Source: a virus
Lineage: Duplodnaviria; Heunggongvirae; Uroviricota; Caudoviricetes
Virus record (IMG/VR): IMGVR_UViG_3300025162_001855
Strand: one strand, 5' to 3'
DNA: 64,000 nucleotides
In this document: positions 5,125-57,253 of the stretch, one piece after another
Layout: each line of letters starts with the position of its first letter
Position numbering within the stretch: position 1 is the first letter of the stretch
The notes under the pieces: generated by a model
Told to the model about the DNA's origin: nothing
Seen by the model: the letters and a program-made list of their open reading frames with translations, nothing else
The model's database searches: none
Translations under genes and position numbers: made by a program

Positions 5125-5870
5125 ACTTCGATGTGCTCGCCGGTGCTTGCTCCGAGACCGGCGCAGCGCCAATCAACTGTTACTAACTTATGCCCACGAA
5201 CAACATACAGATAAAAAAGTGGTTCGTAATCTATGGTTTTGTACAGTGCATAGGAATTTTCGTAACGTGTTGGCATTGCCTTCATGTCCTCACAGAATTT
5301 GACAAGGGCATAGCGTCCAATTGCGTATGTTACAGTGGGTGCCCAACGGTATTTGCCGTTATCATTGAGTTCGGCCGGCGCGCCCCAACTGTCACTCCAG
5401 TCCCACTCCCAAAAACGTTTGACTAGAAACTTGTCGAGATTTTCCTCGGTCAATACACTTGCATCAAATTTGGTGAACTCATATCGACCGGACATTTTGA
5501 CAATGTAGTCATATTCTCTTAGACGATCTGCGTACTTGGTGAGGAATGCTGCCATCAGCTTTGATTCACAATAGCCTTTGGATTCGTGCGTCTGGCAAAT
5601 CGTTTTCGTTTCCTCGTCCAATTTGACTACTTCAACATTTCTGAAAAATGTCAATTCGATGGGGGTTGACCGACCAACATCAACCACAAACATAGTGGCA
5701 TCGGGTTGGAATTTTGCAATGTTCAAAATAGTGTGCATTGTTTGCTCAAATCTTTCATTGGGCGTAAAGACGGAACGCATCATAGCATTGGTGCCATGTA
5801 GCGTATTGTCCTTTAATGCCATATCTCCGTCGATGTCAATCGCCGAGGTGATTACAAAACAAATTTTCAT
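5121..5870 (-). CDS. putative glycosyltransferase-like protein, paralog B
   Basis: MKICFVITSAI..ERFEQT..KGYCE..KMSGRY; colinear with 4372-5124. Confidence 0.5.
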   Translation of the reverse strand: MKICFVITSAIDIDGDMALKDNTLHGTNAMMRSVFTPNERFEQTMHTILNIAKFQPDATMFVVDVGRSTPIELTFFRNVEVVKLDEETKTICQTHESKGYCESKLMAAFLTKYADRLREYDYIVKMSGRYEFTKFDASVLTEENLDKFLVKRFWEWDWSDSWGAPAELNDNGKYRWAPTVTYAIGRYALVKFCEDMKAMPTRYENSYALYKTIDYEPLFYLYVVRGHKLVTVDWRCAGLGASTGEHIEV

Positions 5871-6052
5871 TTCTTAATATTGGGGGCTTTGACGATTCCA
5901 AATAAAACAATTGCAGCCAGCCATGTCCAAAAATTATATGGGATGGACAATGCTGGGAAAAGGGTATTCAACGACCAAACAATAAACAGCGGGCTGAGTA
6001 AAACAGTAAGAATGATGCCGAATACAATGCCGGCAAATGCAAAATTTTTCAT
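5867..6052 (-). CDS. small two-TM membrane protein
   Basis: hydrophobic ORF with GGAG RBS. Confidence 0.7.
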   Translation of the reverse strand: MKNFAFAGIVFGIILTVLLSPLFIVWSLNTLFPALSIPYNFWTWLAAIVLFGIVKAPNIKK

Positions 6053-6067
6053 AGAATCTCCTGTCAG

Positions 6068-6217
6068 CTATTTACTGCTGGGAGAGGGGTGGTACCAAAT
6101 AGTACCACCCCGTTTATTCAGGCGAAGAGTTCGAGTGCCGGCAACTAGGAATGCCTCAACTTCCTCAGGATTAGTTGGGCCGTGTGTGATATCGTCTTTG
6201 GTGATCTTTACCGTCAT
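6068..6217 (-). CDS. 49-aa ORF not in track (MTVKITKDDITHGPTNPEEVEAFLVAG...), probably leaderless
   Basis: ATG 6 nt after a TTGACC-17-TATACT promoter (6224-6252). Confidence 0.45.
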   Translation of the reverse strand: MTVKITKDDITHGPTNPEEVEAFLVAGTRTLRLNKRGGTIWYHPSPSSK

Positions 6218-6334
6218 AAAGACAGTATAGAGAAGGTACGCGGAACGGTCAAGCTCCGCGTACCCATTTCCTCAAGCGAAGATTTCCAATGCGGTTTCTC
6301 AGTCATTAAGATAAATAAGCACAGAGGAGAAATT

Positions 6335-7054
6335 ATGAAAATCTTACCATATGTATACCAACTTACACATACTGAAACTAACGAATTTTACATAGGAGTT
6401 AGATGGGGTAACAAAGTTCCGGCGTCAGATGATCTGGGCAAGAAATATTTTTCTTCGTCAGTTGAAACCAAGCCTCGCTTTTCAGAATTCATCCCCTTGA
6501 TAATTGCTGAATTTTTTGACAAAGAGGACGCTATAGAGTTTGAACAACAATTGATTACCGAACACTGGGGTAACCCTCTATTGTTAAATAAAGCTATTCA
6601 AGTATCAAAAACATTCAGGTGTTCCGGGCATTCGGAAGAGACTAAACAGAAAATGTCAAATTCAAAAAAAGGGAAGCCCCCAAATAATAAAGGAACAAAA
6701 TTGTCGGCTGAAAGGGTAGAACAGATAAGGAAAAGGGCTAGTGAATATCGGCACACCGATGAATCTATTGAAAAGATTCGCCAAAAAGCATTAGGTAACA
6801 AACGAGGAGTTGGCAACAAGAGTAGGACTGGTCAACAACAATCAGTAGATGAGCGATTGAAAAAGAGTGAGTCACTTAAAGGAGAAAAAAATCCAAATTT
6901 TGGAAAATCACTCTCAGAGTGGCAAAAAGAAATAATTAGGGCGGCTATGTTAAACCGCCCTAAGTTAAAATGTCCGCATTATTCTAAAGAACTGGATCCG
7001 GCGAACTATAAACGCTATCACGGTGATAAATGCAAATCACGCATAGATAGTTAA
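6335..7054 (+). CDS. free-standing GIY-YIG (Seg-like) homing endonuclease with NUMOD3 repeats
   Basis: PYVY...FYIGVR, YFSSS, HSEETKQKMS/HTDESIEKIR repeats; TAAATA and GAGGAG upstream of ATG 6335; inverted relative to neighbours. Confidence 0.85.
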   Translation: MKILPYVYQLTHTETNEFYIGVRWGNKVPASDDLGKKYFSSSVETKPRFSEFIPLIIAEFFDKEDAIEFEQQLITEHWGNPLLLNKAIQVSKTFRCSGHSEETKQKMSNSKKGKPPNNKGTKLSAERVEQIRKRASEYRHTDESIEKIRQKALGNKRGVGNKSRTGQQQSVDERLKKSESLKGEKNPNFGKSLSEWQKEIIRAAMLNRPKLKCPHYSKELDPANYKRYHGDKCKSRIDS

Positions 7055-7897
7055 GTGCGTACCGCACTCAACACAGAACTTGGCTGTTGCCTTATTCTGT
7101 CTGTTGCAGGACTTGCAACGTGGCTTCGACTTTACAGTCACCGGCGCTGTCACCGGCTTGTTCTCGGAATTTGCCCCAAGCAACTTGAGCACAATCGAAT
7201 GCTTCTCGTTTTCCATTGGGAACGAAGATGCTGTACCAAATGATTGTGTACTTTGGCTTCCTGGAACAGTGATGCCGGCGTCGTTTACGGATGCAGTCGA
7301 CGTAAAGGTGGTTTCGGTTGCAATGTTATTGGATACCGAACAACTAGTGTAGGAAACACTTTGTGAACTACCACCGGCTTCACTAACATTGCCCAAATTG
7401 TTCAACATCATTGATCGTACAATCCGATCACCATGCTTATGATTGAATCCGGTGTTCAATGGAGAATCAATCCAAGGATCCTTATCCCATGGGTGCTTCA
7501 GAGGATACTTGTCCATTGTATTTGGAATATAAGGTGGTGGTGCAATGTAGCGTTCGAATTGGTATTCGATACGAACAATGCCATCCTCAAGTTTGATACC
7601 ACGGTGCGCTTCCACTGCCCCACTGCGCTCAATGAATTTGAACTTGTTACCTTGTGTCAACGATCCGTTCTTTAGACTGCGTTCAAGGTCAATCTCTTGC
7701 CCTGGATAGAGAACAAATCCCTGCGGGGTGTGATTTTCACCATCGATATAAACGTTGAACAACATTCTAACGGAATTGAGGTTCTTGATGAGTAACGAGT
7801 ACTCTGCGCCAAAGGGCAGGTAGACGGTATCTTTGAACTCTCTTAGGATTTTGCCATTGGCCTTAACGCTGGCCACACATTTCGAATTAAACATCAT
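7037..7897 (-). CDS. hypothetical protein with C-terminal double zinc ribbon
   Basis: CKSC...FCVECG at C-terminus; AAGGAG RBS. Confidence 0.75.
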   Translation of the reverse strand: MMFNSKCVASVKANGKILREFKDTVYLPFGAEYSLLIKNLNSVRMLFNVYIDGENHTPQGFVLYPGQEIDLERSLKNGSLTQGNKFKFIERSGAVEAHRGIKLEDGIVRIEYQFERYIAPPPYIPNTMDKYPLKHPWDKDPWIDSPLNTGFNHKHGDRIVRSMMLNNLGNVSEAGGSSQSVSYTSCSVSNNIATETTFTSTASVNDAGITVPGSQSTQSFGTASSFPMENEKHSIVLKLLGANSENKPVTAPVTVKSKPRCKSCNRQNKATAKFCVECGTHLTIYA

Positions 7898-9088: not shown

Positions 9089-9846
9089 TATAACTTTTGT
9101 GGCATACTCGTTTTGAGTCTACCACGAATAAACCCGTTATCCAAATGTTCTGCCAATTGCGATATTTGAATTACATGCTCGTCTATACCATTATTTATCC
9201 AACAGGTGCTTACTCGATGTCCAAGTTTACCACGAACCCAACCATCTGGTATTGGTTCATCTTTACCTATTCTTCTCACCTCTTTGGTAAGAGTATTAGA
9301 TATCCAGTATTTTCCAAATTGACTATTGCCTTCTCCTGTTGCTTTTTCACTTATCTTTTTCTTGTGTTCTTCCCTTTCTTTGGGGGTAGCATGTTTCCAA
9401 CCATTTCTTGGATTGGTTTTATTTGAGGTTTGAACCTTGTTCAACCAATTCCGATAATGTTCGGTGTGGTTTGCTTTTTGATTGGCCATAAATTCTATCA
9501 ACTTCCTACGTGCAATTTTTCCACCAACTCGGGCAGCTTCTTTATGTTGTTCAGAACCATTCCAATGATTCCATCCACCGACTCCACCAGTCCGTATATT
9601 ATATGTGTCGGTTCTCTTGCAGAATTCTTCATTAACTATATTGAGTTCTTCAACCCACATGTCCTGTTCATTGTCAAATATATGCAATATTTCTTTGATG
9701 AAATGTTCGATTCCGTATTTCTTTTTGGCTCGATTTAACGCATGTCCAGAGCCCATGTAACCGTCGTTGATGTCCCAAGTTACATGAGCACCAACATAAA
9801 TCTTACCGTTTACGGTATTAGTAATTTTATAGATTAGGTACAGCAC
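9088..9846 (-). CDS. free-standing GIY-YIG (Seg-like) homing endonuclease
   Basis: LIYKITNTVNGKIYVGAH...YMGSG; probable GTG start at 9846, 5 nt after TAAATA. Confidence 0.88.
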   Translation of the reverse strand: MLYLIYKITNTVNGKIYVGAHVTWDINDGYMGSGHALNRAKKKYGIEHFIKEILHIFDNEQDMWVEELNIVNEEFCKRTDTYNIRTGGVGGWNHWNGSEQHKEAARVGGKIARRKLIEFMANQKANHTEHYRNWLNKVQTSNKTNPRNGWKHATPKEREEHKKKISEKATGEGNSQFGKYWISNTLTKEVRRIGKDEPIPDGWVRGKLGHRVSTCWINNGIDEHVIQISQLAEHLDNGFIRGRLKTSMPQKL

Positions 9847-33620: not shown

Positions 33621-34805
33621 ATGTCAACTACCCTACCTTCATTATACCAAGATTTCATTCATATTAGCAGATACGCCCGTTTTAACGATGCTTTAGGGCG
33701 TCGAGAAACGTGGGAAGAGACGGTGGACAGATACATTACGTTTTTCCAGAATAAAGTTCAAAATGGTAAGAAGGTACCGTGGGAAGAGTTAAGAACCGCT
33801 ATATTGAATTTGGAAGTCATGCCATCAATGCGATGCTTAATGACAGCTGGACCTGCACTAGAGAAGGACCAAGTAGCCGGATACAATTGCTCGTATATCG
33901 CCGTTGACAATTCAAAGTCGTTTGACGAGATCATGTACATCTTGATGTGTTTTCATCCCGATACACTTGTCAAAACCCGAAATGGTCCGGTTGCTATATC
34001 ATCTATGCAGATTGGAGACGAAGTGTTATCGTATAACGAAGTAACAAAAAACTTTGTCTGGCGTCCTATTACTAATGTAGTAGAAACACCATCCGCCCAT
34101 TTAGAAAAAGTGAAAATAACATTAGAAAATGGTCAAGAGATTTTGTGTACATCAAATCATAAATGGTTGACTGAAAATCGTGGTTGGATAGAGGCCGGCA
34201 ATCTTACCGTCGACGATGATCTAATAGCTCCGAAATTTGTAGTATACAAGAGCACTAACACAAATAATCAAAAAAGTTATGTTGGTTATACGTCCAAGAC
34301 CGTAAGGGGTAGGTTTATCCAACACCTCGCCGAAGCACGGAGCAACAGTGGTAAGTATTCCTCCCATTTTCATCGTGCTATTAGAAAACACGGAGAAGTC
34401 TGTTGGAATAACGAAATACTTGACTACGCATATACTAGAGAAGAAGCAAAACAAAAGGAAAAGGATTGGATTGTTTTATTAGACAGTAAAGAAAACGGAT
34501 ATAATTCTTCAAATGGCGGGGACGGTGGGGGCAATACTTGGTCCGAAGAAGCAAAACAAAAAGCTCGGGAAAATTCTTATGAGCGAACCGAAGAACATCG
34601 GACAAAACAAGCAGAAGTAATTAAGAAGGCTCATATAAAAATACACGAGACTAGAAAAACTGAAAAATACCGAGAAGCACAGCGTTTGCGAAATCTAGGA
34701 TCAAATAATCCTAGATATGGATGTACTGCTACCGAAGAAGAACGCAGAATCAAAAGTGAACAGGCTAAGGCAAGAACCAGATCGGCAACAGGGAGATTTG
34801 TATGA
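33621..34805 (+). CDS. nrdJ: class II ribonucleotide reductase part 1 (109 aa) fused to split-intein N half and a GIY-YIG endonuclease
   Basis: RYAR..RRETWEETVDR, MPSMR, YNCSY; ILM|CFHPDT junction at 33948. Confidence 0.9.
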   Translation: MSTTLPSLYQDFIHISRYARFNDALGRRETWEETVDRYITFFQNKVQNGKKVPWEELRTAILNLEVMPSMRCLMTAGPALEKDQVAGYNCSYIAVDNSKSFDEIMYILMCFHPDTLVKTRNGPVAISSMQIGDEVLSYNEVTKNFVWRPITNVVETPSAHLEKVKITLENGQEILCTSNHKWLTENRGWIEAGNLTVDDDLIAPKFVVYKSTNTNNQKSYVGYTSKTVRGRFIQHLAEARSNSGKYSSHFHRAIRKHGEVCWNNEILDYAYTREEAKQKEKDWIVLLDSKENGYNSSNGGDGGGNTWSEEAKQKARENSYERTEEHRTKQAEVIKKAHIKIHETRKTEKYREAQRLRNLGSNNPRYGCTATEEERRIKSEQAKARTRSATGRFV

Positions 34806-34909
34806 AAATTACCAAATTAGAAAAAATTCAAGATAATCAAAATTATTTTGATATTACAGTACAGGATACACATAACTTTGTGCTTGAAAATGGGTCAGTT
34901 GTCCATAAT
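33948..34909 (+). mobile_element. split intein 1: IntN (33948 to about 34230) plus fused GIY-YIG/NUMOD3; IntC 36 aa (34802-34909)
   Basis: Cys1 CFHPDT, block B CTSNHKWL, VVYK..YVGYT..RF.QH; IntC MKITK...VHN|C. Confidence 0.9.
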
Positions 34910-36277
34910 TGTGGAACAGGTGTTGGATTCTCTGTTGAATCACGTTATACTAACAAACTACAAGAAGTACCCGACGAGCTGCATGATACCGATACAACAA
35001 TTGTATTCAAGGATAGCAAGATTGGTTGGGCAACCGGATACCGTGAATTTGTATCGTTGCTGTATTCCGGTAAGATTGCGAAGTGGGACGTTTCAAAACT
35101 ACGCCCAGCTGGCGCACGCTTAAAGACATTTGGTGGTCGAGCATCCGGACCAGAACCGATGGTCGATCTTTTGAAGTTTACCCTTAACATTTTTAACAAA
35201 GCCCGTGGACGCAAATTGTCCACATTGGAGTGTCATGACATCGTGTGTAAAATTGCTGATATTGTTGTGTGTGGCGGAGTTCGTCGCTCTGCTCTTATCT
35301 CTCTTAGTGATCTTAATGATGACTATATCCGACATTCCAAGTCAGGAGAATGGTGGACGGGAAACGGTCAACGAGCACTCGCGAATAATAGCGCAGTATA
35401 TGAACAGCGACCGGATATGGCAACATTCATGAATGAATGGGTTGCGCTCTATATGTCGCGATCCGGTGAACGTGGTATCTTCTCTCGCGCAGCATCACAA
35501 GCCGCTGCTGCCAAATATGGACGTCGAGATCCAAAGATGGATTATGGTACCAACCCATGTTCCGAAATTATTCTTCGTCCGTACCAATTCTGTAATCTAT
35601 CGGAAGTTGTTGTTCGTGCAGAGGACAATTTGGAGAGCTTGCAGCGTAAGGTAAGGCTTGCAACCATTCTCGGAACACTACAATCAACACTGTCCGATTT
35701 CCGTTATATCAACAAGCGTTGGAAGAACAATACCGAAGAAGAACGGTTGCTTGGTGTTTCCCTTACCGGTATTATGGATCACAAGATTCTTAATGGATCG
35801 GTATTTGATGACCAAAAGGATGTGTTGGGTAATTGGTTGTCGTCTATGCGCGAAACTGCCGTTAGCACCAATAAAGAATTTGCCAAAGTATTGGGAGTTG
35901 AAGAATCGGCTGCTATTACTTGCGTCAAACCTTCGGGGTGTATGGACAAAGATACAGTCATCAAAACTTCAAAGGGTAACATGACGCTAGAAGAAGTATT
36001 CGAATATTTCGCATACGATTTAACACAATATAACCAAGGAACTTTCCTCACAGCAGGGCATTCGGCAAAGAACTTTGAAGAATTGTTTGTATACGACGAA
36101 AATAATCAATTACAACCTATTACAAAATTGTATGTTAATGGCATGTCAGAGGTTTATGAAATTGAAGATGAAACTGGAAATACCTGGCGGTTCACTGGCG
36201 AACACAAAGTAAAGACACACCGTGGATGGGTGCGGGTCGACGAATTATCAATGGATGACACCATTGTTACATACTAA
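34802..36277 (+). CDS. nrdJ: class II RNR part 2: IntC1 - catalytic core - IntN2
   Basis: VHN|CGTGVGFSVE, RRSALISL, NPCSEI, TCVKPSG|CMDKDT. Confidence 0.92.
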   Translation: MKITKLEKIQDNQNYFDITVQDTHNFVLENGSVVHNCGTGVGFSVESRYTNKLQEVPDELHDTDTTIVFKDSKIGWATGYREFVSLLYSGKIAKWDVSKLRPAGARLKTFGGRASGPEPMVDLLKFTLNIFNKARGRKLSTLECHDIVCKIADIVVCGGVRRSALISLSDLNDDYIRHSKSGEWWTGNGQRALANNSAVYEQRPDMATFMNEWVALYMSRSGERGIFSRAASQAAAAKYGRRDPKMDYGTNPCSEIILRPYQFCNLSEVVVRAEDNLESLQRKVRLATILGTLQSTLSDFRYINKRWKNNTEEERLLGVSLTGIMDHKILNGSVFDDQKDVLGNWLSSMRETAVSTNKEFAKVLGVEESAAITCVKPSGCMDKDTVIKTSKGNMTLEEVFEYFAYDLTQYNQGTFLTAGHSAKNFEELFVYDENNQLQPITKLYVNGMSEVYEIEDETGNTWRFTGEHKVKTHRGWVRVDELSMDDTIVTY

Positions 36278-37162
36278 AACGCACAGTCCCACTTGGTTTG
36301 ACATAAATACAATTATGTCCAAACCTAAACAAAAATATAGAAAAGATTGCCATAAAATCTGGAGAGATGCTTATGGCGATGTTCCGGAAGGCTATGAATT
36401 ACATCATATTGTTCCCCGCCATGCTGGCGGACAAGACGTATTGGAAAACTTAGAAATAGTTACTTCGGCAGAACATAAAGAACGGCATCTAAAATTATAC
36501 GAAAAAAATGGTGATTTTAGAGACTTATGTGCCTATCATATGATAGGATATAACTTCACTGAGGCCCATAGGATATCATCAAGCGAAGGCGGGAAGGCAG
36601 GAGGAAAGAAAGTATACGAAGAAGGCATAGGTATATTTCGCTCAAAAGAAGAGCGACGAGTCTGGGCTTCTGCTGCCGGGAAAATTGGAGGGGTAACGCA
36701 ACGAGATAATAAACTCGGCATACACGGACTAACTAAAGAACAGAACCGTATCAATAGTAGTAAGGGTGGTAAGAAAGGCGGATTCACTAATCCAGAAATT
36801 CAGAGAAAGCTCGGTAAACGCGGTGGTCCAAAAAACAAAGGGTTTGTTTGGCTAACCAATGGAGTTGATACTATAAAGTATTCTCCTAAACAGCAACAAC
36901 TAAAATCTGTTGAACAATTTTTACTAGAGAATAAAGAATATAGAATAGGACGGGCACAGCACAAACCAGTTACCTGCCCATACTGTCAAAAAACCGGACA
37001 ACCCGGAGCAATGGCGTTACATCATTTTGAAAATTGTAAAAAGAGGAAAACTTAATGAGAATCAAAAAAATTACGAAACTAGCACAACCACTACTAACAG
37101 TAGATATCGAAGTTGCCGACACACATTCATATCAATTAGCTAATGGTTGGGTGGTCCACAAT
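35939..37162 (+). mobile_element. split intein 2: IntN 112 aa (35939-36274), free-standing HNH gene, IntC 36 aa (37055-37162)
   Basis: Cys1 CMDKDT, FTGEHKV; IntC MRIKK...VHN|T. Confidence 0.9.
36315..37055 (+). CDS. HNH homing endonuclease with GGK repeats and C-terminal zinc finger
   Basis: HHIVP..GG.D..ENL....EH...H; CPYC; ATG 5 nt after TAAATA. Confidence 0.85.
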   Translation: MSKPKQKYRKDCHKIWRDAYGDVPEGYELHHIVPRHAGGQDVLENLEIVTSAEHKERHLKLYEKNGDFRDLCAYHMIGYNFTEAHRISSSEGGKAGGKKVYEEGIGIFRSKEERRVWASAAGKIGGVTQRDNKLGIHGLTKEQNRINSSKGGKKGGFTNPEIQRKLGKRGGPKNKGFVWLTNGVDTIKYSPKQQQLKSVEQFLLENKEYRIGRAQHKPVTCPYCQKTGQPGAMALHHFENCKKRKT

Positions 37163-37711
37163 ACCGTTAGCCAGCTAGTTGACTCGGCTTCGGGTATTCA
37201 TCCTCGTTATGCCCAATATTATATTCGCCGTGTTCGTGCGGACAAGAAGGATCCATTGGCCAACTTTATGATCTCGCACGGTTACAAAGCCGAAGAAGAT
37301 TTCTATGCCAAATCCAATTGGGTATTCTCGTTTCCAGTAAAGGCACCCGAAGGTGCTGTTGTTACCAAAGATGTAACGGCTATCAAGCAACTTGAACTAT
37401 GGCAGACTTACCAAAATTCCTGGTGCGAGCATAAGCCATCCATTACAGTGTTCGTTGGTGATGATGAATGGATGGATGTAGGAGCTTGGGTGTTCAAAAA
37501 TATGAGCACACTATCGGGCGTATCATTCCTCCCACGCGATAACGGAACATACCGCCAAGCGCCATACGAAGAGATTACCAAAGAGAAGTTTGAAGAACTA
37601 TCAGCAGAACTCAAAGCCGATATTGATTGGACTAAGTTTATGGAAGAAACAGATATGACCAAGGGCTCGCAAGAACTAGCATGTTCGGCGGCCGGTGGTT
37701 GCGAAATCTAA
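37055..37711 (+). CDS. nrdJ: class II RNR part 3: IntC2 - C-terminal domain
   Basis: VHN|TVSQLVDSASGIHPR, EHKPSIT, YRQAPYEEI, C-terminal CSAAGGCEI. Confidence 0.92.
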   Translation: MRIKKITKLAQPLLTVDIEVADTHSYQLANGWVVHNTVSQLVDSASGIHPRYAQYYIRRVRADKKDPLANFMISHGYKAEEDFYAKSNWVFSFPVKAPEGAVVTKDVTAIKQLELWQTYQNSWCEHKPSITVFVGDDEWMDVGAWVFKNMSTLSGVSFLPRDNGTYRQAPYEEITKEKFEELSAELKADIDWTKFMEETDMTKGSQELACSAAGGCEI

Positions 37712-56542: not shown

Positions 56543-57253
56543 TTATTTTGATTTACAAAATTTTATGTGACGGACAGTCACTATCTTAATCAAACAATAC
56601 GGGCATTCATCGATTCTTTTCTGTGGGCCGGTTTTTCCTCTAGCTTGCTGTCGTTCTCGCATTTTTTGTTTCGTTTCTTCAGAGTGTGATTTGCCAGTCA
56701 TTCCGCTTTTATGACCAATCTTACTAGATGATATCTTTTCTTTGATCTCTTTAGCCAATTCTTCACCGTGCCGCTCTGCTAAACTTTTCCCCGAATACAA
56801 CTTTGATAAATTCTCTTTAAACTCATCAGATCGTTTATCAACGCCACGCTGACCTTTATTGTGAGGGATTTTCCCTTTTTGTGCATCGCTCATTTTTCGT
56901 TTCGCTTCGTCTGAATGTTTGTGTCCTGTGCGAGCCATTATTATACTGTCACGAATTTTAGCATATTCCCACGAAGTAACTCGTCGATCTTGAAGCGGTG
57001 ACATTTGAATAAACTTACCCAATGCATAGTGCATTAGCCGCTTGTCATTACCAGTAGTAAATTTTGTTAGTAGCATATGGCAAACCAAGTGTTCTCGAGC
57101 AGTCAAATAAACCAGGTTAGTTTTGTCATTTGATCCACCCATTGACTTTGGAATAATATGATGACGCTCACTACCAACAAACTTATTTCTGTTTGACGCA
57201 TTTATAACTATGTTGTGGTACCATTTATGGTACTTGTTTTCGATGATCGACAC
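56543..57253 (-). CDS. HNH homing endonuclease with NUMOD3 repeats
   Basis: ERHHIIPKSMGG.N...NLVYLTAREH..CH; HSDEAKRKMS, HSEETKQKM. Confidence 0.88.
   Translation of the reverse strand: MSIIENKYHKWYHNIVINASNRNKFVGSERHHIIPKSMGGSNDKTNLVYLTAREHLVCHMLLTKFTTGNDKRLMHYALGKFIQMSPLQDRRVTSWEYAKIRDSIIMARTGHKHSDEAKRKMSDAQKGKIPHNKGQRGVDKRSDEFKENLSKLYSGKSLAERHGEELAKEIKEKISSSKIGHKSGMTGKSHSEETKQKMRERQQARGKTGPQKRIDECPYCLIKIVTVRHIKFCKSK

Follow-up and report, generated by a model that had tools for sequence, protein, structure and literature searches.

Probable three-chain assembly of a phage class II ribonucleotide reductase by two different split inteins

Introduction

How can a single reductase be obtained from a gene that is broken into three separate pieces? 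This question is raised by positions 33621-37711 of a 64,000-nt stretch (hereafter, the window) of the IMG/VR record IMGVR_UViG_3300025162_001855, a member of Caudoviricetes, in which four genes encoding proteins of 394, 491, 246, and 218 aa follow each other back to back on the plus strand. Three of these genes carry consecutive portions of nrdJ, the gene of a class II ribonucleotide reductase, and the remaining one encodes a putative HNH nuclease. A first-pass annotation had proposed that the reductase is fractured into three genes that need two trans-splicing inteins, a proposal consistent with the homology of the pieces to a known reductase, the exactness of the junctions, the class 1 motifs of both inteins, and the spread of the essential cysteines over the pieces. 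Thus, it is very probable that NrdJ is assembled from three chains by two different split inteins, each with a homing endonuclease cassette. The two predicted endonucleases, namely a GIY-YIG domain in the first open reading frame (ORF1) and the HNH gene, were absent from that annotation; their presence at both sites makes the locus a double "fractured gene" and explains how this architecture arose.

The Reductase Gene and Its Junctions

The features of the locus are given below, where IntN and IntC denote the N- and C-terminal halves of each split intein; throughout the text, a slash marks a break.

33621-34805, plus strand: ORF1, 394 aa; extein residues 1-109, IntN1, and GIY-YIG domain
33621-33947, plus strand: NrdJ extein piece 1, ORF1 residues 1-109, ending in ILM; carries GYNCSY
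33948-34235, plus strand: IntN1, ORF1 residues 110-205 (96 aa); Cys1 in CFHPDT, block B CTSNH (TxxH)
34236-34805, plus strand: GIY-YIG domain and basic DNA-binding tail, ORF1 residues 206-394 and stop; PF01541 match at residues 206-295
34802-36277, plus strand: ORF2, 491 aa; IntC1, reductase core, and IntN2
34802-34909, plus strand: IntC1, ORF2 residues 1-36, ending in VVHN; positions 122-155 of the Intein_splicing profile
34910-35938, plus strand: NrdJ extein piece 2, 343 aa, from Cys+1 to Gly379; NPCSEI thiyl-radical loop and FCNLSE
35939-36277, plus strand: IntN2, 112 aa and stop; Cys1 in CMDKDT, block B FTGEH
36315-37055, plus strand: HNH gene, 246 aa, PF01844 match; also predicted with the same length on independent contigs
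37055-37711, plus strand: ORF3, 218 aa; IntC2 and reductase C-terminus
37055-37162, plus strand: IntC2, ORF3 residues 1-36, ending in VVHN
37163-37711, plus strand: NrdJ extein piece 3, 182 aa and stop; Thr+1 in TVSQLVDS, C-terminal ACSAAGGCEI

The pieces can be placed on the reductase (RTPR) of L. leichmannii (1L1L). The profile built from 11 uninterrupted relatives aligns with 1L1L over residues 34-736 (E-value 1.1e-63), and piece 2 (E-value 5e-20) and piece 3 (E-value 4.7e-15, residues 551-712) also match on their own. In the profile alignment, YNC90 of piece 1 (GYNC90SY) lies opposite NNC119 of RTPR; piece 2 contains the equivalents of the N406/C408/E410 loop and of C419, and the C-terminal Cys pair of piece 3 (C-x5-C) aligns with the C731/C736 region. 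Since the essential cysteines are spread over three chains, no single piece would be active alone. With homology along the full length of RTPR and with the active-site Cys, Asn, and Glu residues and the terminal Cys pair all in place, the gene is, on the evidence of homology, a phage nrdJ encoding a monomeric adenosylcobalamin-type reductase of the RTPR kind. Both breaks fall inside conserved core motifs, namely LM/CGTGVGF at site 1 and KPSG/TVSQ at site 2, which on the RTPR alignment correspond to M158/K159 (within LM/xGxGVGF) and G551/T552 (within KPSG/T), respectively.

The junctions could be defined to the residue by comparison with related loci, 80 of which were retrieved by scanning IMG/VR with the core extein. 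In approximately 75 of these 80 loci, the three extein pieces lie end to end in one frame (tblastn), as in locus L001, where they occupy positions 5674-6000, 6001-7029, and 7030-7572 with 78-83% identity. Given that the pieces are contiguous in these relatives, taking out the proposed inteins restores the native gene exactly. The Cys110 codon of ORF1 begins at 33948; in ORF2, CGTGVGF comes directly after VVHN, and KPSG (residues 376-379) is followed by Cys380. The junctions listed in the first-pass annotation, ILM/C (33948), VHN/CGTG, KPSG/C, and VHN/TVSQ, are all exact when set against the relatives, and its description of a 36-aa IntC1, a 36-aa IntC2, an NPCSEI core, and extein pieces of 109 + 343 + 182 = 634 aa is correct in every part, with a computed mass of 71.7 kDa for the spliced product. 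Moreover, the +1 residues are native, Thr453 being invariant in the 11 uninterrupted relatives and Cys110 being the majority residue there.

The genes are tightly arranged. The ATG start of ORF2 overlaps the stop of ORF1 as ATGA, the HNH gene begins 37 nt past the stop of IntN2, the gap between ORF2 and ORF3 amounts to 777 nt, and sequences resembling a Shine-Dalgarno element, GGGAGA and AGAGGA, precede the starts of ORF2 and ORF3 by 6-8 nt, so that each downstream reductase piece has a putative ribosome-binding site of its own, as had been claimed. Regarding the two overlaps claimed along with these sites, ATGA does lie between reductase ORFs, but TAATG, although real, joins the stop of the HNH gene to the start of ORF3 (piece 3) and not two reductase pieces. 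The idea that a programmed -1 frameshift might yield a contiguous intein at the ORF1/ORF2 overlap was considered and rejected, since no slippery heptamer occurs at ...AGATTTGTATGA... and since the stop/start overlaps vary among homologues (1, 4, 14, and 17 nt), each of which keeps an independent Met-Lys/Arg-Ile start (MKI/MRI).

The Split Inteins and the Proposed Assembly

Both intein pairs contain the residues that define class 1 split inteins, i.e., C110, T177-x-x-H180, VVHN, and Cys+1 in intein 1, and C380, TGEH, VVHN, and Thr+1 in intein 2, and these motifs are kept in 6-7 homologous loci each. ORF1 yields Pfam matches to Intein_splicing, PT-HINT, Hint, and GIY-YIG, and the best PDB match of IntN1 is the NrdJ-1 split intein 8UBS (E-value 2.5e-8). 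In 30 fused homologues of 41-57% identity, Cys110, Thr177, and His180 show no or almost no variation, and blocks F and G of IntC1 (DITVQDTHNF and NGSVVHN) are conserved in seven loci. In the second intein, IntN2 is conserved in L053, L056, L087, L088, L089, and L090, and the motifs DIEVADTHSY and NGWVVHN of IntC2 are conserved in six loci; moreover, IntC2 aligns to contiguous inteins located at the same site in NrdJ proteins of 948-1187 aa. The ratio of nonsynonymous to synonymous substitution rates (dN/dS) is 0.05-0.26 for IntN1, IntC1, IntC2, GIY-YIG, and HNH in pairwise comparisons with L089 and L082, values that are rough because dS is saturated. Judging from these ratios and from the conservation of catalytic residues, the inteins and the nucleases are likely to be under selection.

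The assembly may be envisaged as follows. Two mobile cassettes, each composed of a split intein and a homing endonuclease, would have invaded the phage nrdJ. The locus would be co-transcribed, and the single transcript would give rise to four proteins: piece 1-IntN1-GIY-YIG (45 kDa); IntC1-piece 2-IntN2 (56 kDa), whose translation would be coupled to that of ORF1 via the ATGA overlap; the HNH nuclease; and IntC2-piece 3 (25 kDa), coupled to the HNH gene via the TAATG overlap. IntN1 would pair with IntC1 and IntN2 with IntC2, each pair reconstituting a class 1 intein, and protein trans-splicing through Cys1, TxxH, the terminal HN, and Cys+1 or Thr+1 would then generate a seamless NrdJ of 634 aa and 71.7 kDa. 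Only after splicing would all essential cysteines, contributed by pieces 1, 2, and 3, be found in one chain. Two complexes are expected as by-products, IntN2 with IntC2 and IntN1-GIY-YIG with IntC1, the latter amounting to a bifunctional intein made of two chains. Intein-free nrdJ alleles in co-infecting phages are the presumed targets of the nucleases, whose cuts would spread each cassette separately.

Among the alternatives, the one that survives best is that the pieces assemble non-covalently and that the intein halves are mere docking domains, in the manner of nrdA of Aeromonas phage Aeh1, a fragmented reductase documented as active in the absence of splicing (Crona et al., PMC3045599). 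However, all splicing residues are present in both pairs and conserved in homologues at 41-68% identity, a conservation that docking alone would not require, and both breaks lie within conserved core motifs. Docking without splicing is thus considered improbable.

A gene in pieces would also be expected if nrdJ were decaying, no longer functional or under selection, and had been broken up by selfish elements, and intein-riddled reductase genes of Campylobacter phages have been suggested to be degenerating (PMC3653736). In the window, however, the exteins are intact, being 82% identical overall to those of the nearest allele (88% in piece 2) with a dN/dS of approximately 0.05 and without frameshifts or stops; every catalytic cysteine is retained, and the layout has been retained in four diverged lineages and is found on at least 24 contigs, all of which renders decay very unlikely. 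As for sequencing or assembly errors (frameshifts or a chimeric assembly), their probability is negligible, since the breaks are not frameshifts, as the first-pass annotation had already argued, but cassette-sized insertions of 963 nt and 1224 nt encoding recognisable intein halves and nucleases, since the same 394/491/246/218-aa gene order is found on all 24 independently assembled contigs (up to ~270-333 kb) read with an identical ORF1, a protein indexed in 47 blocks of the assembly collection, and since homologous cassettes occupy the same sites in other phages. On this comparative evidence, the locus is not an assembly artefact, and trans-splicing of three chains is the preferred explanation.

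Partner Selectivity

The coexistence of two related inteins in one pathway raises the question of how each half finds its partner. Identity amounts to 27% between IntN1 and IntN2 and to 47% between IntC1 and IntC2, and some cross-reaction is possible because the inteins are homologous. Mis-pairing would lead to cyclised piece 2, or to piece 1 ligated directly to piece 3. Since these outcomes would scramble the product, the need for partner selectivity stands on functional grounds. The first-pass annotation had founded this selectivity on the contrast of Cys+1 and Thr+1, a basis that does not hold, because partner choice is set by the IntN/IntC interface and not by the +1 residue. At this interface, the first 16 residues of IntC2 have a charge of +4 and face the acidic strand EVYEIEDE of IntN2; the charge of the first 16 residues of IntC1 is +1.

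In a four-chain model containing IntN1, IntN2, IntC1, and IntC2 together, IntC2 contacts IntN2 only. The model score of the IntC2-IntN2 pair is 0.62, the best of three controls reaching 0.00, and the mark for this score is attained by 51 of 78 solved complexes and by 2 of 108 mismatched pairs. At least 92% of contacts are shared between the runs, the pLDDT (predicted local distance difference test) of the partner is at least 77, and the score drops to 0.00 when IntN2 is replaced and IntN1 is still present. As split-intein complexes have already been solved, the pass may reflect likeness to them; furthermore, a four-chain job lies outside the calibration of the tool, and a pass in it cannot say which family member binds. 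Hence, the model gives a hint, and not proof, of IntC2-IntN2 pairing, and the mutual orthogonality of the two pairs is plausible. The limits of the four-chain job weigh against the assembly proposed here, and so do the possible cross-reaction of homologous halves, the saturation of dS, and two features of the locus itself, namely that no recognisable Shine-Dalgarno sequence lies upstream of the HNH gene and that a promoter and terminator scan returned counts no different from those of shuffled sequence, which makes the scan uninformative on the transcript.

The Homing Endonucleases

The nuclease of site 1 is a GIY-YIG domain (PF01541, 30.6 bits with a cut-off of 22.6) that continues the reading frame of IntN1, neither a stop nor a spacer intervening. 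It matches the catalytic domain of I-TevI (1LN0, E-value 1.5e-5), its residues Y209, Y220, G222, R231, H235, E280, and N295 are invariant or nearly so in the 30 fused homologues, and NUMOD3 is present in many homologues. By its motifs and its tail, the nuclease part of ORF1 matches what is expected of an I-TevI-like GIY-YIG homing endonuclease. The whole architecture of ORF1, including the GIY-YIG fusion, is common to approximately 30 protein clusters with 42-60% identity.

The protein encoded between the second and third reductase pieces exceeds the PF01844 cut-off only barely (22.8 bits versus 21.4) and exhibits the motif ELHHIVP...NL...EHKERH; its homologues in L087, L089, and L042 match HNH at E-values of 5e-7 to 9e-5. 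Free-standing HNH homologues (53-55% identical) are located directly downstream of an uninterrupted nrdJ at L042:7590-8204 and L075:5794-6369, a layout that fits a free-standing nuclease targeting nrdJ before it lodged inside an intein. At the same site-2 position, L088:3297-4100 encodes a probable SegE-like GIY-YIG nuclease (24.9 bits with a cut-off of 25). Compared with positions 36315-37055 of the window, the head carrying the nuclease appears to have been exchanged and the presumed DNA-binding module retained.

Elsewhere in the window, a GIY-YIG paralogue 29% identical to the nuclease part of ORF1 is found at 9334-9840 on the minus strand and a short HNH-like stretch at 57068-57175 on the minus strand, which points to a larger load of homing-type nucleases in this phage. 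The window also encodes a DnaB-like helicase and another DNA helicase, and when the intein halves were used as tblastn queries against the window, no inteins were found beyond the two described here.

Relatives and the Order of Invasion

Megablast of the locus against GenBank phages returned no match, and protein searches with IntN1-GIY-YIG and IntN2 found no GenBank phage record with these inteins in nrdJ; the nearest phage isolates are Roseobacter phages, with 64% identity in piece 2. The gene contexts of the relatives, obtained from exact-protein look-ups, fall into the following layouts.

Site 1 only: L082-L085, with a fused IntN1-GIY-YIG and then a second gene of 555-580 aa
Site 2 only: L053, L056, and L089, with the HNH gene
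Both sites: L087, L088, and L090/L091, besides the window

Approximately 30 clusters are fractured at site 1 only and approximately 45 at site 2 only; in the profile search, the doubly flanked middle pieces rank first, and approximately 45 site-2-only clusters are among the matches listed. The doubly split assembly, which had been described as rarer than the single one, is indeed rare but not unique, given that doubly fractured nrdJ genes are found in three further lineages (L087, L088, and L090/L091). L087 is an NCBI record of a 117.6-kb contig in which the site-1 nuclease is a free-standing NUMOD3 protein and is not fused; L090 and L091 come from two independent samples and have a layout identical to that of the window.

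In a maximum-likelihood tree built from the concatenated exteins, alleles with inteins are interspersed with alleles that lack them, as would be expected if the cassettes home independently, and the three doubly fractured loci in this tree require three changes. The sister of the window is the site-2-only L089, within a small clade that also contains the intein-free L001, L003, and L005. In the lineage of the window, the order of events was most likely that the site-2 cassette came first and the site-1 cassette was gained later.

Other points of this reductase have been interrupted as well. The proteins P0043 and P0070 (432-434 aa), which are closely related to this NrdJ (~79-84% identity in piece 1), are broken at GTNPC/C by a split intein of the NrdJ-1 type, and 44 contigs, the longest reaching 208 kb, carry P0043. 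With this break at NPC/C, the reductase clade has been fractured at no fewer than three points in different phages. In the same nrdJ clade, contiguous LAGLIDADG inteins occupy KPSG/T at site 2 (P0213 and P0236). An IMG/VR census with the site-1 fusion profile found only two loci with a related intein, both of them two residues downstream: at L092:2726-4320 and L093:2813-4520, an intein 42-50% identical to IntN1/IntC1 lies at LMNG/TGVGF and has Thr+1. These two alleles carry Asn, and not Cys, at position 110, and the GIY-YIG gene of L092 is unfused; the intein insertion point thus appears to follow the available nucleophile.

Two further interruptions were noticed. At L045:1442-2380, nrdJ contains a contiguous insert of approximately 313 aa with a LAGLIDADG-like motif, located at GYN/CSY before the Cys equivalent to C119; its ends are unusual for an intein, as it begins with PVSGDT and ends with VTGN. 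At L056:633-1613, approximately 5 kb upstream of the fractured nrdJ and on the opposite strand, weak IntN- and IntC-like matches surround an HNH-like stretch, and this region may be another fractured gene.

Comparison with Known Systems and Significance

Fractured genes were described by Dassa et al. in 2009 (PMC2677866) in 26 metagenomic loci, all of which have a single split intein and are referred to as "fractured in two", including NrdJ-1 and NrdJ-2 at NPC/S; a free-standing GIY-YIG or Vsr-like nuclease follows after a spacer of 27-51 nt. Structures of the NrdJ-1 split intein are available (8UBS and 9OMB). The locus of the window resembles these systems in that a phage enzyme of DNA metabolism is encoded on one strand in the order N-part-IntN, endonuclease, IntC-C-part, the intein halves being in frame with the N-part and the C-part at both sites, and in the canonical position of the split (IntN of ~100 aa and IntC of 36 aa), the nrdJ host gene, and the involvement of GIY-YIG. 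Site 2 also agrees in its free-standing nuclease gene and its 37-nt spacer, which lies within the published range. In contrast, the window has two fractures and three pieces of host protein where the published genes have one fracture each; its breaks lie at LM/CGTG and KPSG/T and not at NPC/S; its site-2 nuclease is HNH, and its site-1 GIY-YIG nuclease is fused to IntN without a spacer, the unfused form being found in L087 and L092. Both nrdJ insertion points are therefore new relative to the NrdJ-1 site, and the locus is a rare double version of the known fractured-gene arrangement. A full-text literature search of partial coverage, which leaves an earlier publication possible, found no natural gene with two split inteins.

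In the same work (PMC2677866), GIY-YIG was stated to be unknown within inteins, an HNH case was only predicted, and the capture of an endonuclease by a mini-intein was proposed but not observed. It is a serious, although tentative, possibility that the window contains natural tandem trans-splicing, in which two homologous and mutually selective split inteins join three chains, and that the element at site 1 functions as a GIY-YIG intein of two chains; it would then be the first case of a GIY-YIG nuclease carried by an intein and a living intermediate of a mini-intein capturing a free-standing endonuclease. If true, one pathway would accommodate two related split inteins and still yield the correct product. 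Moreover, the relatives provide a natural series of intein-free alleles, alleles with site 1, site 2, or both, and nucleases that are free-standing or fused. This series could be used to test how selfish endonucleases and inteins combine, how partner selectivity evolves, and whether the nuclease-intein fusion ties nuclease expression to the host gene. With regard to applications, the locus adds two candidates, one having Thr+1, to the fast split inteins, although their value as tools is modest because large orthogonal sets already exist, such as the library of 15 orthogonal split inteins reported by Pinto et al. in 2020 (PMC7090010).

The closest comparison outside fractured genes is the split reductase nrdA-a/mobE/nrdA-b of Aeromonas phage Aeh1 (Crona et al. 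2010, PMC3045599). There, the large subunit of a phage reductase is likewise broken by a homing endonuclease gene of the HNH type, and the pieces are co-expressed from one operon, but no intein is involved and the association is non-covalent, whereas complete split inteins flank each break in the window. A different parallel is found in inteins that splice in cis. The ribonucleotide reductase gene of Trichodesmium erythraeum, reportedly described by Liu, Yang, and Meng in J Biol Chem in 2003, is said to carry four inteins. This gene, together with P0213 and P0236, is comparable in the presence of several inteins or in the use of site 2, always at conserved class II core motifs; these inteins are contiguous and cis-splicing, whereas those of the window are split and three chains must meet. 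Finally, Shi and Muir are said to have engineered tandem trans-splicing with orthogonal split inteins in 2005. Engineered ligation by several inteins is well established (PMC7090010), and such systems, like the locus of the window, involve at least three polypeptides joined in a defined order and at least two split inteins that do not cross-react. They are man-made, whereas the logic of the window appears natural and the product of two separate invasions; nature appears to use the multi-piece protein ligation that engineers have built deliberately.

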